62,749 nt of DNA, filler included, from an uncultured virus (IMG/VR IMGVR_UViG_2061766007_002204) (9 parts of one record of this genome joined end to end with filler, not necessarily neighbours in it); one strand, 5' to 3'; numbered from the whole stretch's first letter, positions 3,622-56,363 are shown. The notes: a model not told the origin generated them from the sequence alone. Program-made: numbers and translations.

Positions 3622-4258
3622 TTCTTCTTGGGTCTAAATATTCTGGTTCGATTTGTGGGGCTGTCTCCGATAACGTCTTGGACGCATTCTTCGATGTATG
3701 AGAAGAAATCGGCGTTCAGCACATTAAGGAATCCGGCGTGCCNNNNNNNNNNNNNNNNNNNNNNNNNNNNNNNATCTGGATCCCACGGAGGAAATAGTAT
3801 TCCGCATTGTGGGCCTCCCTCACGGCAAACTCGGCGCCGACGATATTGTCGTAACGCATCCCGGCGTCCTCGGCAGTAGCATGCTGCGGCTTCGTAGCGC
3901 TCGCTGGCATGTAGTGGATCGCAACGGTCCGGTTCTTTTCCGCTATTCTCACTGCGATACTGTCGTGCAACTNNNNNNNNNNNNNNNNNNNNNNNNNNNN
4001 NNNNNNNNNNNNNNNNNNNNNNNNNNNNNNNNNACTCTGCTGGACCACGTTGCTGAATTTTCCGGGCCTCGTGATGAGGGTGCTGTGCGGCCACTCGCTA
4101 TCCGTCTTTCGGATCCAGTCTTTGCAGCTGTCGGAGAGNNNNNNNNNNNNNNNNNNNNNNNNNNNNNNNNCGTCTCCCAGGGCCTCGCTGAACGAAGCAG
4201 CGAACTTCTTCCAGTCGGCCCGGACGGATACTCTAGGATGTGAACCGTACCTCGGCAT
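3618..4258 (-). CDS. Neck/tail completion protein (HK97 gp10-like position)
   Basis: ORF across gaps with LHDSIA motif; synteny. Confidence 0.5.
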
Positions 4259-6275: not shown

Positions 6276-6850
6276 CTACTCGTTTACGAAGGTGATGTTG
6301 GTGAGGTAAGGCTTGTACACGGCCGGAACTTCGGCAATGCGGTCCGCGAGGACCTGGCCCTTGGTGACGACGGTGCCGGTGGCGCCGACATTGNNNNNNN
6401 NNNNNNNNNNNNNNCCGGTCGGCATGAGAGCAGCCTTGTTGGAGCCGTTTTCAGCGACCATCACGAGGATGTCTCCGTCGGACAGAACGCCGAGAGCGTT
6501 GGCGGTGATGGCGAAGGTGTATTCACCCTCGTGATCGCCAGAACCCACGGAGGTGGGGGCGGGAAGCTTCACGGCCTTAGCNNNNNNNNNNNNNNNNNNN
6601 NNNNNNNNNNNNNNNNNNNNNNNNNNNNNNNNNNNNNNNNNNNNNNNNNNNNNNNNNNNNNNNNNNNNNNNNNNNNNNNNNNNNNNNNNNNNNNNNNNNN
6701 TCTCGAGGACAACAGCTTCAGCACCGACCTTCGGGACGTACACCGGCGTGCCGACGGGCACGACGGAACCGACCGGATACGTGTTCAGAGTGCACCCGGC
6801 GGTGTAGAACTCGTCCACGTGAAGCCAGATCGGAATCTTCCCTGCAGGAA
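6276..6850 (-). CDS. Capsid decoration/auxiliary head protein (start in gap)
   Basis: Beta-rich ORF between scaffold and capsid, ends ...YLTNITFVNE. Confidence 0.55.
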
Positions 6851-7712: not shown

Positions 7713-9212
7713 TTACTCTTGAATTGACTTGCCTGGATCGTTGTTGTCCACGTTCGGTGCGTCCGGGTTATTCTCCTCGGCCGCGCCGCTGTACTTGTGC
7801 TTCATGGCGAGCTCTTCCTCCCATTCCTTGTTGATCTGGTCGTAGTCGCCCTTATACTGCGAGCCGAGCTCGTTCAAAGCGGCCTTCCTAGACAGGACGC
7901 GGGCATAGACCTTCCGGCAGACGATCTCGGTGAGTTCCTTCTCGTTCTGCGGGATCCAGATCTCCTGCCAGACGGACGTGCGGAGCTTGTCGAACTTGTC
8001 GAGGTTGCCCTCGATCTTTCCGACGAGGCGCTTGAAGACCTTCACCAGGTGACGGATCGGCTTGTTGTAGACGATCCAGCGCTGCTGCGCCCATTCGATC
8101 TCCGGGCGGAAGAGGATCTTGATGCTCGTGGAGCTGTCGGCGCCCTGCTTGAGGATCGACGGCTCGATGATAGCCGTCTGGCTACCTCTGATGATGTTGT
8201 CGTTGAGCTGCTTGAAATGCACCTCGGCGATATTGCTGGCGTCCGGCGGCGCCGCGAATTTCACGTCGCTGTGCGCCAGGGAATCGGCCGTGCCCTTGAT
8301 GGCGATCGTCTTCGCGTTCATCTCCGTCGGCGGGAGGCTGGTCACCTTCNNNNNNNNNNNNNNNATACGCCGTGTCCTTCACTTCGTTGGCCACGTACGA
8401 GGCGGCATTCTCGTGGGCCTCGATAGAAAGCTGTACCGGGCCCCAGCTGACGTCCGGGACGCGGAAATACGTGAACTGGTTCAGATCGGAACCGACCTGG
8501 GCGTCCCTCTTCCGGATACGGACCCAGCCGTCATCGCTGACCTCACCCTTCACGGCGGCGNNNNNNNNNNNNNNNNNNNNNNNNNNNNNNNNNNNNNNNN
8601 NNCCCAGGTTTCGATGCTCTTCGTGGAGATGATGTCGCACATCTCCTTGTTGTCCTTCCAATACTGGATATAGTAGACAGGCTTCCCGTTTTCGTCCTCC
8701 TGCGGGTAGATCGTGTGGCCCTTCTCGAAAGAGTAGACCTCCCAGTCGATCTCGTCGTCGTCCGTCTGGTAGACGAGGATACCGGCGTCACCGCNNNNNN
8801 NNNNNNNNNNNNNNNNNNNNNNNNNNNNNNNNNNNNNNNNNNNNNNNNNNNNNNNNNNNNNNNNNNNNNNNNNNNNNNNNNNNNNNNNNNNNNNNCAAGG
8901 TCGAAAACGCCAGATCCGGTGAGGTGGGCAATCTTATTCCCGCAGATGAACAGCTGCCATCCGAGGGCCACGGACTCGAGGTCGTCGTAGCCGGTGATGA
9001 CGAGCTTTTCCTTCCCGTTCTCGTCCTTTTCTCCGGACGGGCCCCAGATGGGCCGCGTCGACATGTACCTAGAATTAATGGNNNNNNNNNNNNNNNNNNN
9101 NNNNNNNNNNNNNNNNNNNNNNNNNNNNNNNNNNNNNNNNNNNNNNNNNNNNNNNNNNNNNNNNNNNNNNNNNNNNNNNNNNNNNNNNNNNNNNNNNNNN
9201 NNNNNNGTTCAT
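7713..9212 (-). CDS. Portal protein
   Basis: ~500 codons across gaps between terminase and scaffold; C-terminal WIPQNEKEL...LSRKAAL like SPP1-type portals. Confidence 0.75.
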
Positions 9213-9233: not shown

Positions 9234-10962
9234 TTATACGTATACAGCCGTGCGTCCACGGCGGTAGCTGTTGAAAAAGCCATCATAGGCGTCGTCCGGG
9301 ATCTCCTTCGGGGCCTCCTTCTTCGGCCGGGCGTCAAGCTCCCAGAACGAGCGAAGACACAGCGAGTCCATAAGGTCCGGCGAGTTCTTCTGGTGCCGGG
9401 CCTTGTATTCGTCCTTCGAGAGATAGTAGATGCGCTTGTTCTTCGTTGTGGACACGAAGAGGTCGATCTCGTCGAATAAAATGTCGCGCAGGGACCGCAT
9501 CACGCCCTTGCGCCCGTACAGGTACATGCCGTCCAGGNNNNNNNNNNNNNNNNNNNNNNNNNNNNTCTTTCCGAGGAGCTGGCTTCTGATGTTGAAATAC
9601 TGCTCGAACGTGACCTGGTTCCCGTGCTCGTCGTATTCCTGCAGGGCGGTCTTGTTGCTCGTGATAGGGTTGGCGTTGATATAGCTCTTGAGGAAGAAGC
9701 CCATGCCGGTGGCGTCGAACGCAAAGTTCTTCATCGGAACGCCATACTTGGCTAGGCACCCTTCGATCCAGGGGACGATCTGCTTCATGTCGCCCTTGTA
9801 GTGCTCGATGGCGATAAACCGGAGGCCCTTCCAGATGACCATCTGGCAGACGTCGGAGTTCGACTGGGCGCCGGAGATATCGAGCGTGGCGTACATCTCC
9901 TCGTCGTCCGTGAGAGGGTTCGACGGGAGGTTCAGTATCATCTGCTTCGTGACGGAAGACCGCTCGTTGTTGACCGGACCAAAGTAAGCGCCCTTCAGAA
10001 TGTTGCGCTGCGTTGCACCGGTTGCGTGGAGGTNNNNNNNNNNNNNNNNNNNNNNNACACGAGCTTGAGGTTGTCAGAGGCCTCGCCGGTGAACATCGTG
10101 AAGGACTTCACCATATCCTCCTCGGTCAGTCCGGCCTTCTTGTCGGCCTCGGACAGCACTATACCGGCCGCGATGGCCACCTCCTTCGCAGTGTCGCCCC
10201 AGATCATATCGTTCACGTCGTCTCCCTTGAAATACACCCACCTGGTCCTGCCGTTCATCTCCGGCTTGATGTAGTAGGTGNNNNNNNNNNNNNNNNNNNN
10301 NNNNNNNNNNNNNNNNNNNNNNNNNNNNNNNNGTGCGTGTACTCCGGGTTGAAGGACATCGTGATCTGCGGCTTCATGCCGGACGAGTCTCTGTTACGGG
10401 ACATCCAGTAGGTGAACATGCGGAACGGCATGTCGGAGCCCTCGTCGATCTGTATAATGCTGGCCTGGTTCTTCTTCGCTAGCTCCTTGAAATCGTCCCA
10501 CTCCGTCGGGTTCTCGATGTTGAAATTGCTATGGATCAGCTGGACGGCGGAGTTCCACTTCGACCAGGCGAAAGTCGGGGAGTCGCTCGAGGACACCTCG
10601 CAACCGGAGAAATTGCCGAGAAGTTCGACGGCATCCCTGTAGATTGAGGTACCCTTCTTCGAGTCGGCCAGCCTCATGGAGATGAATCGGCCGGAGAATC
10701 CGGGCTTCTCAATACCGGCCAGGAACTTCATCAGCATGCTATATGTCTTCCCCATAGTCGCGGCTCCGCACAGGAAGATAATGTTGCTTTCGCACTTGAT
10801 AAAATTCTCCTGCAGTCCCGGCTGTGGCATAAAGTCGCGCTTTTCCCGCAGGACAAAGTCGCCGACCTTATCCCAGCCCTTCTCCTTCACGGTAGGCAGT
10901 TTTCGCTCGACATGTTCGTAGAGCGGGGGCAATTTGGCGTCTTTGTTCTTTATCCGAAACAC
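9234..10962 (-). CDS. terL: Terminase large subunit
   Basis: PQPGLQ Q-motif, GAATMGKT Walker A, IQIDE Walker B, nuclease domain with TLDISG, FDATG and SPDLMD. Confidence 0.85.
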
Positions 10963-19908: not shown

Positions 19909-21360
19909 CTAGAACGGCAAATCGCTGTCGGCCACCGGAGTGTACCCCGCGTCCGGATCCTCCTCCTTCTTCTCCACCTCGGTCGCCCTTACTTCCATAT
20001 AATACCATACGCCGTCGCCACGGCGCTTGCAGACGCAGCCCATCTTCTTGAAGGCCTCCGTCACGGCGCTCCGCGACCTCGGGGTCTCGCCCCAGTCCTG
20101 GCAGTACTTGATGTACTCCTGCACCCACTCCTTGAGGCTCTTCCATCCGGGGGCCCTCNNNNNNNNNNNNNNNNNNAGATCCACCGCCGGAGCGAATTCG
20201 AATTCTCCTTCATCTCCTCCACGATGTCCTTCACGCTCGACGACACCTCGATCTTGCCGCCGTTCTTCACGAAGCTCCGGTAGCCGTCGAACATCCAGTT
20301 GAAGATCGCCGCCCGGACGTCGTCCGCCATCAGCTTCTTCTCGAGGGTCACGTCCTTNNNNNNNNNNNNNNNNNNNNNNNNNNNNNNNNNNNNNNNNNNN
20401 NNNNNNNNNNNNNNNNNNNNNNNNNNNNNNNNNNNNNNNNNNNNNNNNNNNNNNNNNNNNNNNNNNNNNNNNNNNNNNNNNNNNNNGTGAACTCACCTCC
20501 GGACACGAACGCCTTGAAATCGCCGCCGGAGAAATCCTTCTTCGACACGTCGTCGCAGTAGTTCACCACCTTCCCGTTCACGTCGGCCAGGTGGTACTCC
20601 GCCTGGTTCCCGCCGCGGAACAGCTGCTCCGGGCTGTAGCTGCTCGCCACCGACCGNNNNNNNNNNNNNNNCGAGCATGTTGATCACCGCCTTGCAGATG
20701 ATGCTCTTTCCGTTCTGGCCCTCACCCACAACAAAGCAGATGTACTCGATCTTGTATTCCGAGCGTTTAGCGAGGAAGCAGCCGCAAAACTGGTGGAACG
20801 TCTCCCGCATGCCCTCGTCCGGGACCGTCTGCGCCAGAACCTTGTCCCACAGCGCTGACCGAAGGCCCGGGGCGTAGTCGAAATCCAGGACCACGTCCGT
20901 CTTGTACTTCACGTCGAAATCGTTCAGCCTGCCGGTCTCGCAGTCGAACACCCCGTTGCGGAAGCACACGTACCTCCGGTCCGGCTCGAAATGGCACCTC
21001 TCGTCGGCCTTCAGCTTGTTCATGCAGAAATCCTTGATGCGCTCCGCAGAGTTGGCCTGGTACACGAGGCCCACGTGCATCNNNNNNNNNNNNNNNNNNN
21101 NNNNNNNNTCCGTCAGCATCTCGTCCTTCACCACCTCGTAGTACCTCCCGTTGAACACGAACAGCTGATCGTCGGCGTCCATCTTGAAGAAATCGCATCC
21201 CTCGTCGCCATCCACCCCGCAGATGTACCGCCGGAAAGCCATCGACATCGACGCCTCCGACAACTTGTTGATGCTCTGGTCCGACGACCCGGTCCCGTCT
21301 ATCGNNNNNNNNNNNNNNNNNNNNNNNNNNNNNNNNNNNNNNNNNNNNNNNNNNNNNNAT
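19909..21360 (-). CDS. P4/D5-like SF3 helicase (primase-helicase C-terminal domains)
   Basis: FRNGVFD, GEGQNGKS Walker A, NYCDD Walker B, wHTH-like C-terminus; start inferred at gap edge. Confidence 0.85.
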
Positions 21361-26033: not shown

Positions 26034-29000
26034 ATGAAAATCGCTGAAATGAAAGCGAAGGATCGCGGGCTGGAGGTCCGCATCTTCGTGAGTGAGCGGA
26101 TGAAGAATGAGTCCGGCAACTGGGGAGACGACAAGCCCGTCCGTGGGTATTGGTATGCGGTGAAGGGCGGCTCGGTCGGTNNNNNNNNNNNNNNNNNNNN
26201 NNNNNNNNNNNNNNNNNNNNNNNNNNNNNNNNNNNNNNNNNNNNNNNNNNNNNNNNNNNNNNNNNNNNNNNNNATGCTGACGCTTGAGCATTTCTTGACG
26301 AGGGAGGGTCTGGTGGACCTTCTTTCGGTGGCGACGTACGGCAACTACTGGCCGGACGTGAAGTTGTACAAGTCTGACCGCGAGAAAGGTCTGTTTGACG
26401 ACTGCGACTGCTTGGAGGACAAGTGGGCCGTGGCGCTCCTGCAGGGCCGTGGTCTCGTGGTGTACGACCGGTACGAGGAAGAGAGCGAGCTGAATGACGG
26501 CGAAGAACAGAAGAAGTANNNNNNNNNNNNGGGTTGGAGAAGATGCGCGACGAGTATCCGCGCCATTGGGCCGACCTCGTGGAGGAGAACGACGACGCCA
26601 TCACGGGCGACGTGTGGCTCCAGCTGACTGTGTTCAACGAATTAATCTACGGATAGCATGAAAGATGAGCTTGTAAAGATCCTTCGGGACCTCATTGAGC
26701 GCTACGGTGAGCCGTGGCGACTTGAGTTCTGCGACGACTTCGACCTTGAGGAGGCCGAGAAGGTCGTGGACTTCTTCAACAACGGCGGTCTTGAGCTGCA
26801 CAACGAGTACGGCGAGAACACTGCGGTGGTGTACGCTGCTATTGTGGACGGCANNNNNNNNNNNNNNNNNNNNNNNNNNNNNNNNNNNNNNNNNNNNNNN
26901 NNNNNNNNGAGCTGACCGACATCTGCGGACGAATTGAGGAGATATATAAAATCTAGAGAGATGAAAAATGATTCATGGGATGCCCGCACCTTCAAAGTGG
27001 GCGACATTCTGGACGCATCGTTCCAGTACACGATGAAGATTCCGGAGTTCTTCCTAGTGACGAGGAACACCGGGAAGACTGTCTACGCTCGCAAGCTCGG
27101 CAAGGTCGTGGTGAGTCACGACGGATACGGCCAGAGCGGAACGATGGTTCCGGACCTCGCCGACCGGAGCGAGAAGGAGTACGTGGCCCGAATCCGCAAG
27201 GACGGGTCGATTAAGCTGGAGGGTTGCTTCGCCTNNNNNNNNNNGCTTGAGGAGGCGAGAAACTACCTGCAGGAGAATCCGTACGGAAAGCTCCGCGCCA
27301 TCTACGACGACCCGCTGTTCGGGAAGCGGACGGCGACCATCTGCAACGGGACCGGAGGGACGATGGTGCTTGCACCNNNNNNNNNNNNNNNNNNNNNNNN
27401 NNNNNNNNNNNNNNNNNNNNNNNNNNNNNNNNNNNNNNNNNNNNNNNNNNNNNNNNNNNNNNNNNNAGCTGGCCACGTTCAAGAGCGACTTCGTTCAGAC
27501 GTGCCTTAAGGCGGACCCGAGCAAGAGTCCGTACGAGAACGGACTGAGCACCGGCGTACCGATTGAGGGCAAGATCATCACGCTGAAGAGCTTCGGCAAG
27601 CAGTATCCTTGGATTGAGCAGCAGTTCCGAGAGGCGTTGAAGGAACGCAGGCCGTATCATTCCGCACGGGTTCCGTTCCGTGGGTACGATGCGACACTTG
27701 AACTGTGGTTCACGGACGAGGCAAAGACACTCATGAACGGGTCGCTTTCCTTGGAGTACAAGGACTGCGGCAACGGCTACTACTACATGCTCGTCAATGA
27801 CGACGAGTTCATCGGATACGATATCGACTAACCAAACGAAAGCAAAGCAATCATGAAAGTCTATTTAGTTATCGAAGAGTCCTGCGTCGAGGATATGCAG
27901 GACACCTATGTCAAGGTGTACAGTAAGAAGGAGGACGCGATCAAAGAGTGGAACGAACGGAGGAAGCAGTGGCTTGAGGGAAGTGAATGGGAGATGACCG
28001 AGAACGAATACCACTTCGAGATGTGGGAGGACGGATACTACTGCCATAATCATGTTAACCTGGATGTGGAAGAAAGCGAGGTACAATAACCATGGCAAAC
28101 AACAGTTAAAATAGGAGGACGAAATGAAGACAATGACAGTGAAGGAGCTCAAGGAGATCTTGGAGCACGCAGATGACAGGGAGTGCGTCGTGATTGACGA
28201 CGTCAACGACATGTGCATCGCCATCGTCGGAGGCGGTGAGTACAGCGAGGAAGGGATCNNNNNNNNNNNNNNNNNNNNNNNNNNCGGCCGAGTGGTTTGA
28301 CTCCGACTTCAACGAGATTGACTGGGCGCTCAAGGGAATCAAGAAGGTTACAACGCCGGACGTTGACGAGATGTACATCAACTACGCAGACGAGACCGGA
28401 GGGCGCGAGGTGTACGTCCAGGCCACGTTCTACGACGGGTTCGCCGAGGGCGTCGGGTTCAAGCTGACGTACCCGAAGATGTCCGAGCTGACGTCCGACC
28501 TTTTCCACCGGATAGACGAGTGCTGCGGTGGCCGCTGCACCGACTCCGGGTGCATCACTCCGCAGGACATCTGCGTGTACTGTGGAAAGCTGGAGCGGTT
28601 CGGCATCATGGATGCCACGAACGGACACGACAAGGACCTCGTCCGCGACATCAACGTCCGGTGGGTGGAAGACCACGACATGTTCCGACCGATCCTGCAG
28701 GCTCTGTACGAGAGGGACGCGCAGGAGATATTCAACTGCAAAGAGTTCGGATGGGACGACGACTTTGAGTCCGTCAAGGAGTGCATGCAGACCTACTGGG
28801 ACCTGCACGCTGAGACGTATCTCAAGTATGTCGCAGACGACCAGGACCTCGAAGCAATCATCAAGTTTGTCAGATACGATAGAAGCGAAAACGCATGAAG
28901 TACGAAGTGACTCTGTACTTCCACACCTACGTCAGTGTAGTTGTGGAGGCCGACAATGACAAGGACGCGATAGAAAACGCGTACCTTGAATCCGGAAACA

Positions 29001-31370: not shown

Positions 31371-32219
31371 NNNNNNNNNNNNNNNNNNNNNNNNNNNNNN
31401 NNNNNNNNNNNNNNNNNNNNNNNNNNNNNNNNNNNNNNGACTCCGCCCTTGCGGAGACGTCCGACACCTGGGACTACGGCCAGGACGAGCGTCCGGTCGA
31501 ACAGTGGATCACCGACATCTTCGGGGACTTTACGCTCAAGTCCGGGAAGATCGAGAACGGCACNNNNNNNNNNNNNNNNNNNNNNNNNNNNNNNNNNNNN
31601 NNNNNNNNNNNNNNNNNNNNNNNNNNNNNNNNNNNNNNNNNNNNNNNNNNNNNNNNNNNNNNNNNNNNNNNNNNNNNNNNNNNNNNNNNNATGGCTCTCG
31701 GCCTAGTGGCCCTGCACGGCGCCTGGAGGAGTGTCGAGCTGCCCCTGCTGATCGGCGTGGCGACGCTCGTATGTATAATCATCAAAAACAACAGCAAAAG
31801 CAATGAACAAAAAGAAGAGAACTGAACTGTCGAAGGCGTGTGAGATGCTCACTAGCGCCAAGGAATCAATCGAGAAGGCAAAGGAGGTCGTGGACGGGGT
31901 GAAGGNNNNNNNNNNNNNNNNNNNNNNNGCCTTCCGGAAGGCCTGCAGGAAAGCGACCGTGGTTATGACATGCAGGATAACGTAGACGATCTGGAGGACG
32001 TTTCGTCCGAACTGGAGTATATGACCGAGACCCTCGGAGACCAGATCGAAAACATCTCGGCCGTGATCGGGAGGTAGCCATGGCACTGCTTACATACGAG
32101 GGGTTCGTCCTCTACGACAAACCGGACGGCGGGTACCGGTCCGAGATCAACGGACATGTGATTCTGTTCGACACTGTTTCGCAGTGGAAACAATACATCG
32201 ACTACTTGAAGACAAGACC

Positions 32220-35171: not shown

Positions 35172-35900
35172 ATGGACAAGCAAAAATACGTAATCTACCT
35201 TCGTGTGTCCACTCGCAGGCAGGGGTCTAGCGGCCTCGGCCTGGACGCGCAGAGGAAAATGTGCACCGATCTCATCGAGAGAGAGAACGGAGTCGTGGCG
35301 AAGGAGTTCCAGGACGTGGAGTCGGGTAAGTCCCGCACGCGTCCTGGCCTCTGGAACGCCATCGATTTCTGCAAGGCTTACGGATGTANNNNNNNNNNGT
35401 CTGGCCCGCGACGTGGAATTCACGTTCAAGGTGATCGGCACCGGCATCCAGATCCGATTCGTGGACATGCCGGTCATGAACACGATGATCCTGGGCGTGT
35501 TCGCGTCCGTTGCGCAGTACGAGAGAGAGCTTATCGTTCAGCGTACGAAGGGAGCGCTCGAGGCGATCAAGGACGACATAGCCAAGAACGGCGGGCACGT
35601 CTCCCGNNNNNNNNNNNNNNNNNNNNNNNNNNNNNNNNNNNNNNNNNNNNNNNNNNNNNNNNNNNNNNNNNNNNNNNNNNNNNNNNNNNNNNNNNNNNNN
35701 NNNNNNNNNNNNNNNNNNNNNNCTCCGCGCTCTATCTCTGGGTCACCAATCAGCTTCTGAAGGGAAAGCCGCGCAGGGCCATCCTGGCGGAAGCGATCGA
35801 ACTCTACGAAAAGAATCCGGCGCTCTACGGCACACGGAACGGCAAGCCCCTCTGCGAGGGAACGCTGTCAAGGTGGGCCAAGGAGATCAGCGCCGACTAA
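35172..35900 (+). CDS. Small serine recombinase (resolvase/invertase family)
   Basis: YLRVST..Q..SGLGLDAQR, DVESGK, RPGL, LARDV, AQYERELI..RTK. Confidence 0.9.
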   Translation: MDKQKYVIYLRVSTRRQGSSGLGLDAQRKMCTDLIERENGVVAKEFQDVESGKSRTRPGLWNAIDFCKAYGCXXXXSGPRRGIHVQGDRHRHPDPIRGHAGHEHDDPGRVRVRCAVRERAYRSAYEGSARGDQGRHSQERRARLPXXXXXXXXXXXXXXXXXXXXXXXXXXXXXXXXXXXXXXXSALYLWVTNQLLKGKPRRAILAEAIELYEKNPALYGTRNGKPLCEGTLSRWAKEISAD

Positions 35901-36427: not shown

Positions 36428-36958
36428 AGAAGATAATGTTCAACGACAAGTTCGGCCTCACGNNNNNNNNNNNNNNNNNNNNNNNNNNTGACGCGGAGGA
36501 TTGTTCCAGAGAAACAGTTGTACTATATCCGTAGGCACTTTCGTGGCCTTGCGGTTATGGAAGCACCGTTCAAGTACGACGAGGTCGTGGCCGTGGCGCA
36601 GAACTACGAGGATGCTGGTATTGACGCCGCAACATTATTGTCTGTAAACAGGAAATGGGTTACTGCTTGTGGTACTCCAGGTTGGAGAAACAAGATGTTT
36701 GTGTCGGCTGATTATATGAATAATTTCATCCGCATCACGAATGTCCGTGTCGAGCGGTTGCAGGACATCAGCGACGAGGATTGCTTAAAGGAGGGCATCA
36801 CGAAACCCACCTTCGATACCTTCACTTTCGATGGATGGAAATACTTTGCATACAATCCCCGTGAGGCATTCGCCGCCCTCATCGCCAAGGTGTCCGGCAA
36901 GGGTGTATGGGATAGCAATCCATTCGTGTTTGTTTATGAATTTGAACTTGTGAAATAG
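36424..36958 (+). CDS. ASCH/PUA-like domain protein
   Basis: MKKIMFND...TRR...ITNVRVERLQDISDEDCLKEG...NPFVFVYEF. Confidence 0.75.
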
Positions 36959-37538: not shown

Positions 37539-37704
37539 NNNNNNNNNNNNNNNNNNNNNNNNNNNNNNNNNNNNNNNNNNNNNNNNATACGACAGTTAGT
37601 TGCACTTCTCAAGTCCTCAAGGGAAAAATGCATGGCTGCATTCTACAAGGACATAGATGAATGTATTAATAACCTATCTACTTTCGGCCCTAAATGAATG
37701 AAAT

Positions 37705-37857
37705 ATGAAAGAGAATGTTGCGACATTTAAAACTGAATACCTAACCGTTAATTTAGGTATTGATGCCAACGAAATACTTGAATTCGTGCGGGAGTTAATA
37801 AGACAACTTTCGGCCCAAATAAAAAGAGAGGCACAGGCCGAAACCTGTGCGTCATAA
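37705..37857 (+). CDS. 50-aa hypothetical protein
   Basis: ATG supplied by the repeat; MKENVATFKTEYLTV...AETCAS. Confidence 0.5.
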   Translation: MKENVATFKTEYLTVNLGIDANEILEFVRELIRQLSAQIKREAQAETCAS

Positions 37858-37900
37858 AAACAAACTCTTGGATTGCAGTCCCGTAGGGAATTGTTTTCAA
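37818..37900 (-). ncRNA. Putative ~80-nt antisense small RNA
   Basis: TATCTTTG promoter at 37904-37911, 5' hairpin CTCTTG..CAAGAG, terminator GCACAGGT-TTCG-GCCTGTGC plus T-rich tail. Confidence 0.55.
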
Positions 37901-37902
37901 GA

Positions 37903-37922
37903 GCAAAGATACAAAAAATATT
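37903..37922 (-). promoter_or_regulatory. Reverse-facing promoter AATATTTTTTGTATCTTTGC (copy 1)
   Basis: TAnnTTTG consensus; identical 20-mer at 39833-39852. Confidence 0.7.
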
Positions 37923-37948
37923 AGAATAACCCATCAATTTTCAGCTCT

Positions 37949-38149
37949 ATGAAACTCTTTAAAGAGATACCAAAAGACAACGGCGTTGGAACGATTCTTC
38001 AAGATGTAAGCGAAGATGAACTCCGCGCGGAAAGTCAAAAGCATATTGATGGCAAACCACATACGCACATCTTCGGGCCGGACAAATATGCCGCCAGCGG
38101 ATGGTACGAAAGGAAGTGCGTCATTTGCGGATATATTGATTACATCTAA
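37949..38149 (+). CDS. 66-aa hypothetical, possible Zn-binding
   Basis: HTH...CVICG; flanked by boundary repeats. Confidence 0.6.
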   Translation: MKLFKEIPKDNGVGTILQDVSEDELRAESQKHIDGKPHTHIFGPDKYAASGWYERKCVICGYIDYI

Positions 38150-38353
38150 CTAATCTACTTTCGGCCCTAAATCACTGACTTATGAAAGAGATTGAATTCT
38201 AACAAGCGAATGATGAAATCCGGGAGGGTTGTAGCCNNNNNNNNNNNNNNNNNNNNNNNNNNNNNNNNNNNNNNNNNNNNNNNNNNNNNNNNNNNNNNNN
38301 NNNNNNNNNNNNNNNNNNNNNNNNNTCGTAACTTGTAAGAAAAAGAAGTACTT

Positions 38354-39121
38354 ATGGAAATGATTAAAAAGATTAAAGCAGAGATTGGAAAACGGATAGA
38401 ACTCCACGATTCGTTGGCATCTAATACCGAAAGCGAGATGATTGCGAATCTTGAAATAGGAGCCGCACAAGCACTCGATGACCTCCTTTCCTTCATCTCC
38501 ACCCTTGAATCTGAAAAGCCGATGATGCAAGATGGATTGGAGGAAGAAATCAAGCGGTACTACAACGATATGGACGGGGATTGTCGCTATGCACAAACCG
38601 CCCGCCACTTCGCCAAATGGGGAGCAGAACACGCAAAAAATGATTGAGATATGAAATGTATTCGTAAAGAAACCGATGATGGAAGTTGGCACGACATTAC
38701 GACCGAGTTGCCAAATATGACTGCCGATGTAGAAGTGAAGAAAGCAGACGGCACTATTGAGTATGCGGAAATTGTGGTTGAAATGGCGGGCTGNNNNNNN
38801 NNNNNNNNNNNNNNNNNNNNNNNNNNNNTTGGAGATACAGGTGACAAAAGTGAAAATCATCATCGTAAAGGAGGACTGATTATGGAACACAAGCACGGAA
38901 TTAACATTCAGTACATTGACACGAAACACGCAAGCGAATGTTGCACGATAACTATCGCAAGCGGTATTCGGACACGGAATCTTCGGGACATCACGAAAGC
39001 GGTGGCAAGAACGATTGACACGATGGGCTATTACCGAGAGCATCAAGGGGAGAAGGATTGTAGGTGGAAGGAAAGAAACGGCAATAGAACAATTATCGTA
39101 ACCACCTACCGAGAGGAATAA
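38354..39121 (+). CDS. Three small ORFs (38354-38647, 38651-~38880, 38882-39121)
   Basis: Closely spaced ATG ORFs. Confidence 0.55.
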
Positions 39122-39141
39122 CCCATCTACTATTGACTGAT

Positions 39142-39426
39142 ATGGGAAAGAAAAGAACAATCGCCGTAACTCCCGTGGGAGATATGATTTTGGCGAAACT
39201 GAAAGAGAAAGGAATCACGCAACAAGAACTCTCCGAATTGACGGGAGTTCAACCGCCAACGATTTCGGATATACTTGGAGGACGGCGGGCAATAACCCCG
39301 GAGGCGTGTGTGTCTATCGCAATCGTCCTCGGTATGGATGCAATAGAACTTGGTCGGGCGCAATCCGACTATGAGATTATGCAAGTATTGAATCCGATTC
39401 TCAAAAAGATACAGAATCGGCCCTAA
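39142..39426 (+). CDS. XRE/HigA-like HTH regulator
   Basis: PVGDMILAKLKEKGITQQELSELTGVQPPTISDILGGRRAITPE...AQSDYE. Confidence 0.85.
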   Translation: MGKKRTIAVTPVGDMILAKLKEKGITQQELSELTGVQPPTISDILGGRRAITPEACVSIAIVLGMDAIELGRAQSDYEIMQVLNPILKKIQNRP

Positions 39427-39437
39427 TTAAATGACTT

Positions 39438-39737
39438 ATGGATTCAACTGAAATGATTGCCTTATGGCACGAAAAGAAGGAAATTCTCAAAGAAAAGGAT
39501 TTCCGTGGTGACCCGTGGCGACTTGCAAGAGAGGCGTTCTATATGGGTATGTCTTGTGGTTTCGGATATTGCAAGGAGCAGTATGTTGATATTGGCCGTG
39601 CATCCGTAATCGAAGGCGAGTATGGAAACGAGGTTTTCTTTGATGATTTCAAGAAAATCCTCGGCAACACCTTCACCGTTGGGGATAGGTTAGAGATTAA
39701 AGCAATTAAACATATTCCCTTCAAGGTTGAAGAATAA
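39438..39737 (+). CDS. Hypothetical protein
   Basis: 99 aa, start and stop both within boundary repeats. Confidence 0.65.
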   Translation: MDSTEMIALWHEKKEILKEKDFRGDPWRLAREAFYMGMSCGFGYCKEQYVDIGRASVIEGEYGNEVFFDDFKKILGNTFTVGDRLEIKAIKHIPFKVEE

Positions 39738-39832
39738 CTCATAGACTTTCGGCCCTAATTGATTGACANNNNNNNNNNNNNNNNNNNNNNNNNNNNNNNN
39801 NNNNNNNNNGGACCCTAAGTGAGTTAGTCAAT

Positions 39833-39852
39833 GCAAAGATACAAAAAATATT
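39833..39852 (-). promoter_or_regulatory. Reverse-facing promoter (copy 2)
   Basis: Identical to 37903-37922. Confidence 0.7.
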
Positions 39853-39857
39853 GAGAT

Positions 39858-39980
39858 ATGAACATTAACACTATTCTCGGATTAGTCGCCTGCGCTTTTG
39901 CGATTGCTTGCGTCACCTTCTTTGTGGGATTCCTATCTGGATTATCCGTCAAGGACGAGTTAGACAAACGCAACAAATGA
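39858..39980 (+). CDS. 40-aa single-TM peptide
   Basis: MNINTILGLVACAFAIACVTFFVGFLSGLSVKDELDKRNK. Confidence 0.55.
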   Translation: MNINTILGLVACAFAIACVTFFVGFLSGLSVKDELDKRNK

Positions 39981-40275
39981 CAAACGGGTGCGGAAAAGCC
40001 CACCGTGAGGCTGGCAGGGTTCATGGTCAATATTCATCANNNNNNNNNNNNNNNNNNNNNNNNNNNNNNNNNNNNNNNNNNNNTTAATTAATTAANNNNN
40101 NNNNNNNNNNNNNNNNNNNNNNNNNNNNNNNNNNNNNNNCGGATGGATCGCGAGTGTGCTTTCTACATCGACCAGATGAATCACGCAAAGAACGGGATCC
40201 TCCGCAAGGCATTCGCCAATATGGTATGGATCTACCACCGCAGATGTGTATACTACCTCAAAAAATGTACTGAAT

Positions 40276-40555
40276 ATGGATTACGGTAATGTGTTCAAGA
40301 AACAGCGGGAGAAGCTGAAGCTCTCGCAGAGAGAAATGGCCAAGAAGCTCGGCTTGACACCGGCGGNNNNNNNNNNNNNNNNNNGTGCCAAAAGAAAGCA
40401 CAATCGTCAAATTGTGCTCTGTCGCATTCATTCCGTTGGCGTACTTCTACAAGGAGGCTACGACGCTGAGGGACTATGCGTACCCCGTATCCCTTGTTGG
40501 AAACGGATCAACGGCTATGTGCATCGATCCCGCGCTTCCAGGATCGGAAGAATAA
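40276..40555 (+). CDS. XRE family HTH regulator
   Basis: FKKQREKLKLSQREMAKKLGLT...PKESTIVKL. Confidence 0.8.
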
Positions 40556-40619
40556 TAGAGAAAGCCCGCCTGGAACCGCAAAACCAGACGGGCTTTTAAG
40601 CACCGACGCATCACTGCGG

Positions 40620-41025: not shown

Positions 41026-41381
41026 TCACATGACCTCTTCCCACAGCACTGGTATGCCCAGTGCCATTGTCTTCGCATAGAACTCGTCGAACGCCCTCGT
41101 GCTGCTCCCATCCGGATCGTCAAGGTAGTCCTTGACGAACTTTGCCAGATGGGCCTCGTCCGTGATCGACGATCCAAGATAGTCAGCCGTAGCCATACAC
41201 CAGACATACGGCCCNNNNNNNNNNNNNNNNNNNNNGCCGTTTGCCTTGATCTTCTCGTCGAAGATTTCCTTCCCGACGACCTTGATCTTCTCGTTGTTCC
41301 GTCCGGTCATCATACCGACGGCCCACTCGTACAACGGCTTGCTGAAATGCCTTCCGTGGTAACTCAAATACTCTCGCATCC
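41026..41381 (-). CDS. Conserved Bacteroidales phage protein
   Basis: YLSYHGRHFSKPLYEWAV...ADYLGSSITDEAHLAKFVKDYLDDPDG. Confidence 0.7.
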
Positions 41382-41746
41382 NNNNNNNNNNNNNNNNNNN
41401 NNNNNNNNNNNNNNNNNNNNNNNNNNNNNNNNNNNNNNNNNNNNNNNNNNNNNNNNNNNNNNNNNNNNNNNNNNNNNNNNNNNNNNNNNNNNNNNNNNNN
41501 NNNNNNNGACGACCGTACCGCTCGCCGAAATACCTCTCGCCGTAGCGGTCTTCCATCTCGCAGGCGAGGTCGTGCATCCGCTCGATGCTCTCGCGGGCCT
41601 TCTCCGCCGCANNNNNNNNNNATAGCATATAGTTCATCCCACCGCACCCTTTCCATAGGGCGTGACAACCAAATTCAAAGAACACACTTTCCTTCTAACC
41701 ATGAACGAGGACACGCCCTTTTTACTGAAACCAAACACGAATAGAT

Positions 41747-42778: not shown

Positions 42779-43387
42779 ATGAGCAAGAGAGCAGAAGAAG
42801 CCGCATTGGAGGCATACCCCCATTACACGGCAGAGAATATCACCGAAGTTACAAATGCGAGACACTTCTTTGAGAAAGGCTACGAAACCGCCGAGAAAGA
42901 AACGATAGAGAGGGCGGTTGCGTGGCTCGAAGAAAATGTTTGGGAACACACGGGCCTTGATCATACGGAGTTATCCGATGCGTTCCGTCAAGCGATGGGG
43001 CAAGAGCCGAAGAACTACCGTGTCCGCTTTGTGGACATGCAGGTCGGATTCTATCCGGCCATCACATGGCAAGACATCAAGAAGATCGTCGAGATCGCCG
43101 ACGACCTCGACCCGCTCTACAACCCCGACGCGCTGGACGCGGAACTCCAGACGGAGGAGGCCTTCTACAAAGAGGTTCTCAAGCGATTCGAGGAGGGCCG
43201 GAAATGAAAGCGATCAGAAGATATGACGGAAAGGTCATCGATGTCATCGAATTCAGTCCACGGGAATTCATCGAGACCGTAGACCAGACCGGCGATGGTC
43301 GGAAGATCTATCCGGAGGGTCAGGTCGTTCTCCTGGAGGATGTCGATTGGGATGCTTTCCGAAGGGAGGCGGCGAAGGACATCCTCG
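42779..43387 (+). CDS. Two hypothetical ORFs (42779-43207, 43204->gap)
   Basis: Coupled ORFs; second has DWDAFRREAAKDIL. Confidence 0.6.
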
Positions 43388-54244: not shown

Positions 54245-56363
54245 CTATGATGTTTGTNNNNNNNNNNNNNNNNNNNNNNNNNNNNNNNNNNNNNNNNNNN
54301 NNNNNNNNNNNNNNNNNNNNNNNNNNNNNNNNNNNNNNNNNNNNNNNNNNNNNNNNNNNNNNNNNNNNNNNNNNNNNNNNNNNNNNTTCTCCCAGCGATA
54401 GTTCGCTCCGTTGTAACCGAGGTTAACCCCGGATGTCTCCGGATAGAACCCATAGGTTTCGTGGAAAGTAACCTGCTTATATGAAACCGCGAGATTCGTT
54501 CCGGTGCGAAGGAACACATATCCCGCAGTTGCGGAAACCATTCCAGAGATATTGTTCGTGGTGGAATTCTTCAAGTTAATGATGTTCACCGCCACATTCT
54601 GTATGTTAGCGTTCAAAAACCGATGGTCGCTATATCCGAGGCTTGCTCCGNNNNNNNNNNNNNNNNNNNNNNNNNNNNNNNNNNNNNNNNNNNNNNNNNN
54701 NNNNNNNNNNNNNNNNNNNNNNNNNNNNNNNNNNNNNNNNNNNNNNNNNNNNNNNNNNNNNNNGTGTAGCTCCCGAAGGTCAGCGCGTGAGGGTTCTTCA
54801 GAGTCGTCGGTATCTCGTCGTAATAGGCAAGGTATTTCGACTCGGTCACCGTAGGGCTTCCCACCTGCGAGACATCCTCGTAGGAATATGTCCACTTGGG
54901 CCTGGGCTTCGAGAACCCGCTGATCGAATAGTTCTGGGCAGACAGCGTGCCTACCGAAAATTTCAAGGTGTTGACCAGAAAATTGTACGAACTGCCTCCC
55001 GTCTTGAGGGCGTAGTCGTCGCCCATCAAGGCGGTCACATGGGCGGAGTCGAGCGAATAGGCCGGTGATGCCGTNNNNNNNNNNNNNNNNNNNNNNNNNN
55101 NNNNNNNNNNNNNNNNNNNNNNNNNNNNNNNNNNNNNNNNNNNNNNNNNNNNNNAGCTCGATCGTGTGAGACGACGACGAGTATGTACCCCAGCTCGCAG
55201 AACCGCTTCCTCCAGTCCACGGCACGTTCACGAAGGCGAGGCCGGATGAATCGCACTGAAGGTAGTAGTAGCGGTCTGATACCGAGGTCACGCTCTGGAT
55301 TGTCGGGGTAGTCGAGAGAACAGANNNNNNNNNNNNNNNNNNNNNNNNNNNNNGGCGTTGGTCGTAGCAGGATTGGCCGTCACGGACAGCGGGCCGTTCT
55401 CCCAGTTTCCGCTCGTCGCGTTCCAGCGGAGGATGTCGCCGTTATTCAAGTTCGTCGNNNNNNNNNNNNNNNNNNNNNNNNNNNNNNNNNNNNNNNNNNN
55501 NNNNNNNNNNNNNNNNNNNNNNNNNNNNNNNNNNNNNNNNNNNNNNNNNNNNNNNNNNNNNNNNNNNNNNNNNNNNNNNNNGCCAGTGCCTCCGGCGTTG
55601 GGGTCGTAGTAGATCCTTGTGGAATCGTTCTCCGCCGCAACGGATGAAGTATTGTTCGAGATCCCGCTGACCTGGTACAGCACGCCAGGGCCGGGAGATC
55701 CCGAGATCGGTGTGCCGAGCGTGTAGAAATTTCTGTTCTGCGACAAGTCAACGCCGTTGATCGTAGTCGTGACCGCCACATAGTTCGAGTGCTGGTGGTT
55801 CAAGTCCACGTTCACGATGTCGCCGTTCGACCAGATGAACTTGACGACACCGGGTGCGTTCTGCTCCGTCGTAATGTCCTCAAGGACATTCACATCAAGA
55901 CTCCCGACGAGCGAGTCTACCTGGCTCTTCGTGTAGAAATCGGCGGAGACCGAGTTTACGGTCAAGGAAGAGTATCCGGAACCGTTCGTCAGCGAAACAT
56001 TCGGTGTTGACTGTTGGAGGGCCTGGACGGCCTCGTAGATGCTCTCGATCGCCTTCGAAGAGAAGGTCTCCGTCAGAGTCTCGCTAGCGATCGGCGTGCC
56101 GAGGTCGGCAACTCCTTTCACGGAGGTAATAAGNNNNNNNNNNNNNNNNNNNNNNNNNNNNNNNNNNNNNNNNNNNNNNNNNNNNNNNCAAGAGGATGGC
56201 CGTCTATGGAGTCCTTCAGTTTGACGGAATAGGTGTGCGGTGTGGTCGTTGTATCTTCGACAAGCTCGAAGAACGAGAAATCCTTCAAGCNNNNNNNNNN
56301 NNNNNNNNNNNNNNNNNNNNNNNNNNNCTCGTCAAGTATGTCTCGTATCTCAATCTTTGCCAT
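54245..56363 (-). CDS. Tail fibre protein
   Basis: S/T/G-rich; GDILRWNATSGNWEN, AFVNVPWT, LKNPHALTF fibre-like motifs. Confidence 0.7.

Follow-up and report, generated by a model that had tools for sequence, protein, structure and literature searches.

The closest known system to the repeat described here is the promoter early stem-loop (PeSL) of T4-type phages. As published (PMC2839356), PeSLs are conserved intergenic cassettes of about 100 bp that run from a stop codon to the next ATG in hyperplastic regions, where they shuffle orphan genes; they carry a sigma-70 early promoter, a Shine-Dalgarno (SD) site and a stem-loop, promoter and terminator activity as well as mini-circles have been demonstrated for them, and the comparison with integrons has been made for them too. 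The repeat that concerns us lies in the genome of an uncultured tailed phage (IMG/VR record IMGVR_UViG_2061766007_002204; the whole stretch of 62,749 nt, 16.2% of which is masked as N in 147 runs, is called the window), where copies of an oriented motif separate small genes between 37.6 and 40.0 kb. Like the PeSL (PMC2839356), it is a repeated, conserved intergenic sequence reaching from an upstream stop to a downstream ATG, is concentrated in hyperplastic regions with many small orphan genes, coincides with the insertions, deletions and replacements that distinguish relatives, and may serve as linker homology for general recombination. In contrast to the PeSL, it measures 26–45 nt, has no recognisable promoter, no SD site and no fold of its own, is known from sequence alone, contains a three-frame stop, is common to unrelated temperate lineages and also bounds tail-fibre genes. 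Among the features that define PeSLs, orphan-gene flanks and differences at the motif were found, whereas an internal early promoter and a stem-loop were not, and the motif is PeSL-like in evolutionary role while falling outside the PeSL definition.

Two other families of phage repeats invite comparison. The start-associated sequences (SAS) and extended start-associated sequences (ESAS) of Cluster K mycobacteriophages, the former 13 bp long with an SD core, are presented as being of unknown function and are not tied to mosaic joints there (PMC3203893). They resemble the present motif in being asymmetric, in keeping one orientation and a fixed distance of a few nucleotides before the ATG, in preceding a subset of non-structural genes of different families and in sometimes containing the upstream stop (PMC3203893). 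The fixed start distance and the orientation are seen in our motif as well, whereas an SD core is lacking and approximately 40–60% of the copies have no ATG. The stoperators of Cluster A mycobacteriophages, as described in two reports, are bound by the phage's own immunity repressor and are specific to an immunity group (PMC9283540, PMC3203893); they, too, are asymmetric sites in short intergenic spaces, in one orientation relative to transcription and many per genome. Unlike stoperators, the same motif occurs here in phages whose repressors are only 26–33% identical.

Older precedents come from the modular theory of phage evolution: Susskind and Botstein, Juhala et al. (2000) and Clark et al. 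(2001) are said to have discussed boundary sequences in lambdoid phages, which reportedly are few and weakly conserved. The resemblance consists in short conserved sequences at gene boundaries that coincide with mosaic joints in temperate phages, and in an early-operon position like that of the lambda nin region; the difference is that here a single well-defined, oriented consensus recurs tens of times across lineages. Integrons are arrays of small gene cassettes with attC sites and an IntI integrase, the attC sites being imperfect inverted repeats (R''/L''...L'/R') that fold as hairpins and are conserved in structure rather than in sequence. The present array shares with integrons the small unrelated genes, each followed by a recombination-prone site, and the occurrence of the same units in different replicons; however, the relatives have no IntI-type integrase beside the array, no attC structure was found, and it is the sequence that is conserved. 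The array is not an integron. Searches of the full-text literature for the motif strings returned one unrelated primer match, and searches for repeats of rumen prophages returned nothing relevant; the motif is apparently undescribed so far.

The existence of the repeat is a solid observation. In our interpretation, to which we assign a probability of roughly 0.58, it represents a copy family of an oriented module-boundary linker of about 26–45 nt that is used in the shuffling of modules by short homology. The core, (T)TYCGGCCCTAATTGAYTGAnnTATG, recurs across many viral and metagenome contigs. A 14-mer scan of public viral contigs yielded 106 loci, about 45 of which are unrelated conserved coding sequence and 21 of which contain the extended motif with unrelated flanks; a 17-mer search with CGGCCCTAATTGAYTGA returned 47 loci, in which CGGCCCTAA is represented by 75 distinct instances, and a 20-mer scan of metagenome contigs at least 123 loci. 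An nhmmer model with the consensus (TAAC..ATC.AC)TTY CGGCCC TAA T TGA Y TGA nnT ATG identified 90 distinct copies, not phylogenetically independent of one another, in 514,750 nt of motif-bearing sequences. Counting from the C of CGG, the TAA is present in 89 of the 90 copies, a stop at positions 10–12 in 78 (TGA 70, TAA 7, TAG 1) and a stop at positions 14–16 in 75, and all three frames are closed within the motif in 75. The upstream open reading frame (ORF) uses the three stops of the motif in 14, 11 and 11 cases, and in 51 copies it ends 3–18 nt before the core. An ATG is found at +20 in 40 copies, at +15 to +22 in 56 and not at all in 34 of the 90, the closed frames lying 4–14 nt ahead of it. 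Single-step variants at positions 10–12 are mostly TAA (7/10), which retains the stop; at positions 14–16 the tendency is weak (5/18).

Ten viral records at least 93% complete carry one to nine copies per genome (two to nine in the seven complete sequences), and motif-bearing records fall into two size classes, 32–35 kb and 60–65 kb. Within a genome, the copies form one to three clusters, with one strand per cluster and in the orientation of the local genes; a reversed control pattern was nearly silent. The motif is confined to gene boundaries of variable regions and, far from being common to all gene starts, occurs at about 6% of them (29 anchors among 446 ORF calls in seven genomes); gene order varies among the relatives. 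In 596 Gb of cellular genomes, the 17-mer showed no enrichment (21 matches vs. approximately 139 expected by chance), and the sole match with the context of the family was in one ruminal Cryptobacteroides metagenome-assembled genome (two contigs), which we regard as a weak lead to the host. The motif is common to a guild of temperate phages of the ruminant gut that probably infect Bacteroidales.

That the motif marks sites of gene swapping among phages is well supported by the comparison of sequences. In a flank-pair test, all pairs of 88 copies were compared over 60 nt on each side outside the motif, with flanks considered similar at 75% identity or more and unrelated below 50%; 17 pairs had one similar flank and none had both, whereas 627 control gene starts from the same sequences and with the same geometry gave 29 one-sided and 19 two-sided pairs (Fisher p=0.0014). 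Copies that belong to a one-sided pair numbered 30/88, compared to 49/627 controls. In seven whole genomes, with BLASTN segment ends counted within 25 nt, breakpoints were found near 12 of the 29 motif anchors vs. 62 of the 432 other gene starts (p=7e-4), and near 14 of the 95 gene starts located within 3 kb of an anchor (p=0.004 vs. the anchors); 15 of the 506 segment ends lie near anchors, with 2.8 expected. A first breakpoint test was biased by a database enriched for motif-centred loci and was dropped in favor of the flank-pair test and the test restricted to whole genomes. The clearest individual case joins the two size classes. Positions 20290–20474 of the 60-kb phage G005 and 6821–6637 of the 32-kb phage G006 match with 98.9% identity over 185 nt that extend from one motif core to the next, and this segment is the sole DNA of at least 60 nt that the two genomes have in common; proteins matching across the size classes are 26–55% identical, with the one exception of a radical-SAM protein (72%, G007 vs. 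G003). The 185-nt unit contains, on the opposite strand, a 35-codon hydrophobic ORF behind TTTG-N19-TATCTTTG, a textbook Bacteroidota promoter by its consensus.

In the window, three full copies (C of CGG at 37685, 38162 and 39750) and several partial ones define the block. These and the neighbouring features are as follows, where g3 to g11 are the genes and A to G the motif copies.

37587–37697, + strand: 3′ end of g3, a truncated gene, 93.8% identical to a gene of G001 until 37667.
37667–37707, + strand: full copy A (47.8 bits), with the g3 stop TGA (37695–37697) inside and the g4 ATG at 37705.
37705–37857, + strand: g4, a 50-aa ORF with an internal motif look-alike at 37794–37827 (7.5 bits).
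37923–37951, + strand: decayed copy C, which retains the 5′ half GAATAACCCATC and ends in the g5 ATG (repeat family D5).
37949–38149, + strand: g5, a 66-aa ORF without a family.
38145–38184, + strand: full copy D (47.3 bits), after the g5 stop TAA (38147–38149), with an ATG at 38182.
38182–38202, + strand: 6-codon remnant MKEIEF* of a 21-aa ORF family (MKEIEEIRND... in G007 at 6589–6654; MKEIEE* in L068).
38326–38647, + strand: g7, 97 aa, with the leader TCGTAACTTGTAAGAAAAAGAAG, which directly follows a motif copy in G010 and in an X5 contig (joint 38183>38326).
38636–38653, + strand: junction with the 3′ half only, ATGATTGAGATATG, from the g7 stop to the g8 start (repeat family D4).
38651–39121, + strand: g8, 156 aa as read, masked at 38795–38829; may be two genes.
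39116–39144, + strand: copy E, GAATAACCCATCTAC joined to TATTGACTGATATG, with the outer halves retained and the core lost; g8 stop TAA at 39119–39121, g9 ATG at 39142.
39142–39426, + strand: g9, an XRE-type helix-turn-helix protein (HTH_3, 7.9e-11), ending at the TAA of copy F.
39401–39440, + strand: copy F (21.3 bits), core and 3′ half with a different 5′ half.
39438–39737, + strand: g10, a 99-aa ORF, found from motif to motif (39417–39762) in contigs X5 record 24, X11 record 8 and X9 record 30.
39732–39768, + strand: full copy G (48.0 bits), after the g10 stop; masked beyond (39769–39809).
39810–39860, + strand: decayed core GGACCCTAAGTGAGTTAGTCA (39810–39833), a 20-nt repeat and the 3′ half ATTGAGATATG (39843–39860), before g11 (repeat families D4 and D9).
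39858–39980, + strand: g11, a 40-aa membrane-type ORF with 92.5% amino acid identity to a gene of L134, where it stands behind a full motif.
39981–40020, + strand: array-end element ACGGGTGCGGAAAAGCCC.CCGTGAGG.TGGCAGGG, found in G002 and L134 after a motif copy or after the same gene.

The copies were where a preliminary description of this DNA had placed them, with three exact occurrences of the 14-mer ACTTTCGGCCCTAA on the + strand (37680, 38157 and 39745). A match with one mismatch lies at 37806 within the 50-aa ORF at 37705–37857 and one with three mismatches at 39413; the total at three mismatches or fewer is 5 vs. 3.43 expected, and 25 of 100 shuffles reach 5, so that this count alone is not significant. 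The exact copies and the scores against a position weight matrix (PWM) are significant, with 47.8, 47.3, 48.0 and 21.3 bits in the block, all on the + strand, compared to a mean of 0.3 and a maximum of 2 matches of at least 8 bits in 30 shuffles. The list of copies given in that description needs refinement for the lesser ones: the copy at 39116 has lost its core, that at 39417 has another 5′ half, that at 37924 is decayed, and the look-alike at 37806 inside g4 is probably incidental. Its other descriptive claims hold. Three ORFs indeed read through the core in three different frames (g3 ending in ...STFGPK*, LSAQ inside g4, g9 ending in ...NRP*); the block is richer in AT (38–47% G+C across 36.5–40 kb vs. 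51–60% in the flanks); and in the readable window outside the block, 16.2% of the window being masked, the PWM found a sole match of at least 5 bits (6.6 bits at 43178, − strand). At copy F, stops occur in all three frames (TAA, TAA, TGA), with the g9 stop TAA at 39424–39426 and the g10 ATG at 39438.

In our interpretation, the block at 37.6–40.0 kb is one linker-bounded array, parts of which are concealed by the masked stretches 37539–37586, 38238–38326, 38795–38829 and 39769–39809. It comprises eight ORFs, i.e. seven small genes and the 6-codon remnant, and a whole or partial motif stands at seven of the eight starts. No Pfam or PHROGs family was found for g4, g5, g7, g8, g10 or g11, where two weak Pfam matches fall below the curated cut-offs (g4, MS_N, E 0.0049; g8, RsfS, E 0.0032). 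The array occupies an early-operon position behind a phrog_874 gene (36518–36958). A search of the phage GenBank collection with the block revealed no close relative (5 weak matches, each covering 3% or less), and an Rfam 15 scan of 36–41 kb gave three matches at E 5–10, none of them on a motif copy. Elsewhere in the window, the PHROGs matches are pieces of portal, large terminase, helicase, primase and tape measure genes. The core genes (portal, terminase, helicase) appear broken into fragments whose frames differ on either side of N runs; the masks may alter the original length, so that frames across them, e.g. that of g3 at 37539–37586, are unreliable.

Several joints in the window can be compared directly with those in other sequences. 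The identity of g3 to its G001 counterpart stops at the 5′ edge of the motif, while the G001 gene continues for approximately 50 codons. The g11 start retains ATTGAGATATG alone, whereas the homologue in L134 has the full motif ahead of it. An X5 contig of 1,035 nt matches the window at 39417–39762 only, a stretch bounded by the cores of copies F and G, and its further 154 and 535 letters are not on the neighbouring window sequence; in an X11 contig, the match to the window ends at 39411. Copy D is joined directly to the g7 leader in an X5 contig, as in G010, and an X3 contig retains the window order g8-g9-g10. Contigs of two other studies show g10 bounded by motif copies at both ends and beside different neighbours; in a third study, its order is that of the window. 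Parts of the window, e.g. 37925–38049, 38675–38799 and 39800–39924, have no contig cover, and the comparison left out the RNA-labelled runs X17–X20, whose shares were small. Three apparent joints (37697>38154, 38169>39735 and 38186>39735) involve near-identical copies, where one copy may fit twice, and are not taken as evidence. The edges of homology are scattered over motif positions of about −15, −7 to −1, +3 and +12.

The copies are of two kinds. Among the metagenome matches listed, 111 distinct exact 20-mers comprise 37 that are followed by an ATG, 59 that are not and 15 in an iteron context. The 60 nt behind ATG-less copies have a median fold z of −1.96, with half of them below −2, compared to a median of −0.29 for the ATG type (Mann-Whitney p=0.006), and several of these folds are canonical terminators consisting of a hairpin and a T-run. 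The genes ahead of terminal copies are often large, and 5 of the 8 scanned show signs of encoding tail or tail-fibre proteins (collagen and fibre repeats, phrog_5240 with GDSL esterase ends), the remaining three being one with an esterase/peptidase domain and two without a match. The placement both from stop to start and from stop to terminator indicates that the motif marks gene ends as much as gene starts. In G007 (34.7 kb), the cluster lies between the lysis/tail end of the late genes and the integrase with its CI-like repressor, which is the classical moron position; in G005 (59.8 kb), one cluster occupies the same position, right behind a gene with tail-fibre repeats, and a second one lies in the early operon, directly behind a phrog_874 gene homologous to that of the window. 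In this early-operon stretch of G005, there is no relative of g4, g5, g8, g9 or g10, and g7 has a counterpart with 43% identity over 42 residues; thus, position and motif are the same and the genes differ. A search with the phrog_874 protein gave 547 loci at approximately 50% identity, a family too broad to choose relatives by, and was not used.

Some observations on related sequences and on the edges of the array stand apart from the argument. One sequence each of the form (TC)ACTTTGGCCTCTAATTGACTGA is present in G006 at 9959(+), G007 at 3938(−), G010 at 31997(−), G002 at 54847(−), G009 at 28114(+), L079 at 2974(+) and L108 at 5162(+), each with conserved DNA behind it; wherever the sequence also contains a motif cluster, the two lie on opposite strands. 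This may be where a conserved gene ends (3′), and the motif may be related to it or derived from it. In L303 (380–680), L114, L116, L125, L128 and L132, TTCCGGCCCTAATTGATTGA (17–20 nt) forms an inverted pair around direct repeats of GGAACAATG. These iteron-type contigs measure approximately 35–39 kb, several are labelled human gut, and the region is non-coding, rich in iterons and often near contig ends; the pair may belong to an origin or a switch region where the same protein binds, but it may just as well be a coincidence made frequent by an abundant phage. Tiny ORFs (MKEIEEIRNDAGGCRMHEVDE, 21 aa in G007) stand behind motif copies, also in G006 near 7720, with 6-codon remnants in the window and in L068, and the g4 start shares ATGAAAGAG with this family. 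The GC-rich array-end element, ACGGGTGCGGAAAAGCCC(A/G)CCGTGAGG(C/T)TGGCAGGG, is conserved in three phages (window 39981–40020, G002 64364–64322, L134 290–330); in G002, it directly follows the terminal motif copy. It may be a terminator or a structured RNA. A 20-nt exact repeat, GCAAAGATACAAAAAATATT, occurs at 37903 and 39833, and its minus strand contains TATCTTTG, matching the Bacteroidota −7 box. Past 37903 on that strand, there are two hairpins with T-runs (37899–37866 and 37850–37831), and 37831–37922 could encode a short antisense RNA over the g4 3′ end, or a 35-codon minus-strand ORF starting from 37853. Finally, TTAATTAATTAA (40084–40095), between two N runs in 40040–40139, looks like a six-frame-stop spacer used to join contigs; to its right lie a helix-turn-helix gene (40246–40599, +) and a phrog_38431/DUF7841 gene (41026–41685, −), in an orientation unlike the order in G005, and the window may be a scaffold joined just past the array.

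The manner in which the motif recombines and its molecular role are inferred. From 5′ to 3′, the motif consists of the upstream stop (usually TAAC..ATC.AC), TTY-CGGCCC, TAA-T-TGA-Y-TGA and 3 nt, followed either by an ATG at the fixed +20 or, where an array ends or a tail-fibre gene precedes, by a terminator-type hairpin. The copies would act as portable patches of homology for general recombination by the phage or the host, for which the Erf-like and Gam-like genes of the 32–35-kb phages (G006, G007, G009 and G010) and the exonuclease VIII-like gene of G005, which also has RusA, are candidate functions. Cassettes could then be inserted, deleted and replaced without damage to neighbouring genes, as proposed for T4 PeSLs, and the triple stop with its fixed ATG would make any unit translatable in any context, in a host that does not use SD sites. 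With no support for a dedicated recombinase, the most economical mechanism would be general recombination through short homology. Several points weigh against this interpretation. The evidence for exchange comes from assembled contigs, where circles and rare junctions cannot show; enrichment of breakpoints is expected at any gene boundary of a variable region, a concern that the local control reduces and does not remove; genes were called by crude picking of ORFs, and the anchors are few (29). Scattered homology edges fit general recombination without proving it, because the true crossover is hidden within identical sequence. The G001 side of the g3 junction has no motif, so that at least one junction needs illegitimate recombination, and 26–45 nt is short for recombination of the RecA type. 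A linker role alone does not explain the very strong conservation of CGGCCC, the retention of stops is clear at positions 10–12 and weak at 14–16, the copies are not independent by descent, and the masked 16% of the window takes in what follows copy G.

The linker interpretation has to be weighed against the possibility, which deserves serious attention although we doubt it, that the motif is kept mainly as an expression signal, i.e. an intercistronic context for termination-reinitiation or initiation without an SD site, comparable to the SAS of Cluster K mycobacteriophages, a site for an RNA- or DNA-binding factor, or a promoter, with exchange as a by-product of its conservation. A role as a translational junction is plausible, because SD sites are not enriched at the gene starts of these phages (50/342 vs. 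45/342 inside genes), the ATG keeps a fixed distance (+20 in 40 of the 56 copies with an ATG at +15 to +22), three frames are shut before the ATG, and variants at positions 10–12 keep the stop; the consensus contains no GGAG, GAGG or AGGA, and A is enriched at −14 to −12 of gene starts, where the TAA of the motif falls. The orientation of the copies along the genes and a conservation of CGGCCC in excess of what a linker needs point the same way, and the inverted pair of the same 17–20 nt that other phages carry in a non-coding, iteron-rich region may reflect a site for a protein. However, the ATG is missing from 34 of the 90 copies and from 59 of the 96 non-iteron copies among the metagenome matches listed, one cassette has its gene on the opposite strand, and the hairpins behind ATG-less copies are explained neither by a promoter nor by a start signal. 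A promoter is unlikely, because the motif lacks the Bacteroidota −33/−7 boxes, terminators follow right after many copies, and promoter-like boxes occur separately, behind terminal copies and inside a cassette; on the + strand of 34–41 kb there is no TAnnTTTG, and a scan for sigma-70 promoters and terminators gave counts near those of shuffles (sigma-70, 9 vs. 6.7). Folding of six copies gave z from −1.55 to +0.34, with different folds, none common or significant, and no Rfam family was hit; a pairing of ACUUUC with the GAAAGA of the start region is possible in copies A and D and not in the others. A host-type signal is unlikely, because the 17-mer is not above chance in the 596 Gb of cellular genomes, and so is a repressor operator, because the CI-like repressors of the phage groups that share the motif are as divergent as stated above (26–33% identity). 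Carrying the translational and linker roles further, the motif might be a purpose-built universal gene junction of Bacteroidales phages, an all-frame stop and restart with CGGCCC as the site of a host or phage factor that drives exchange across lineages, in effect an integrase-free cassette system. This is improbable in our judgment. When the G007 proteins were compared with those of the large phages, no family common to all motif-bearing phages was seen as a candidate binder, and the eight weak matches were to an endolysin, a tail-region protein, an integrase, a CI-like repressor, an SSB-like protein, a radical-SAM protein and two unannotated ORFs.

An integron-like exchange array had been proposed in the preliminary description, with a serine recombinase about 1.8 kb upstream to which no link was shown, and with a set of shared regulatory sites as the alternative; the latter may still be the primary role of the motif. 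As proposed there, the repeat delimits exchangeable units, and breakpoints are enriched at it, whereas the integron-like mechanism is not supported. Under that mechanism, the motif would be the site of a dedicated recombinase, be it the serine recombinase, a phage integrase or a host enzyme. The array of small unrelated genes with a site behind each, the motif-to-motif units common to unrelated phages, the 'empty' copies at array ends, the truncation of g3 exactly at the 5′ edge of the motif with no motif on the G001 side, and the palindromic pattern of TTTnGGnCCnAAA all speak for such a site. The recombinase gene is real (35172–35900, Pfam Resolvase N-terminal match, 3.6e-8), but the Resolvase family (PF00239) was found in none of the ten motif-bearing genomes at least 93% complete (the control found it in 12 of 14 reference genomes), and its link to the motif is rejected. 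Tyrosine integrases (PF00589, for which the relatives and not the window were searched) are present in eight of the ten, all but G001 and G010, and are of the ordinary phage type, 410–466 aa long and beside CI-like repressors; they lie at least 2.6 kb from the motif clusters, on which ground an integrase-adjacent system was rejected, and those of the two phage groups are 26–31% identical. Moreover, no inverted repeat or attC-like structure or fold was found at the copies, and the homology edges are not at a single fixed nucleotide, so that we rate a dedicated site as very unlikely. Even less credible is a selfish miniature element resembling miniature inverted-repeat transposable elements (MITEs), or leftovers of local duplication, without a role in exchange: copies do decay, as the half copies and the core-deleted copy of the window illustrate, and a unit may have been duplicated, to judge from the small ORF remnant that follows copy D and from the shared ATGAAAGAG, but there are no terminal inverted repeats and no target duplications, every copy is placed precisely between a stop codon and the next start or terminator and in the orientation of the genes, and the flanks are unrelated in most copies and across lineages.

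The modular theory predicted conserved linkers between exchangeable modules, and clear examples have been few, the PeSLs of T4 being the best studied. The motif described here is compact, sharply defined and common to unrelated temperate phages of one habitat; it bounds small accessory genes as well as tail-fibre genes, i.e. determinants of host range, and its joints are readable directly in public contigs. If the linker interpretation is true, the motif would provide a handle on accessory genes of the moron or anti-defence type and on recent gene flow in rumen viromes, and would offer a natural design of an 'insulated junction' for the engineering of Bacteroidota, where translation start signals are poorly understood. 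It would also make testable, in a new group of phages, whether mosaic joints are targeted or arise at random and are then selected.

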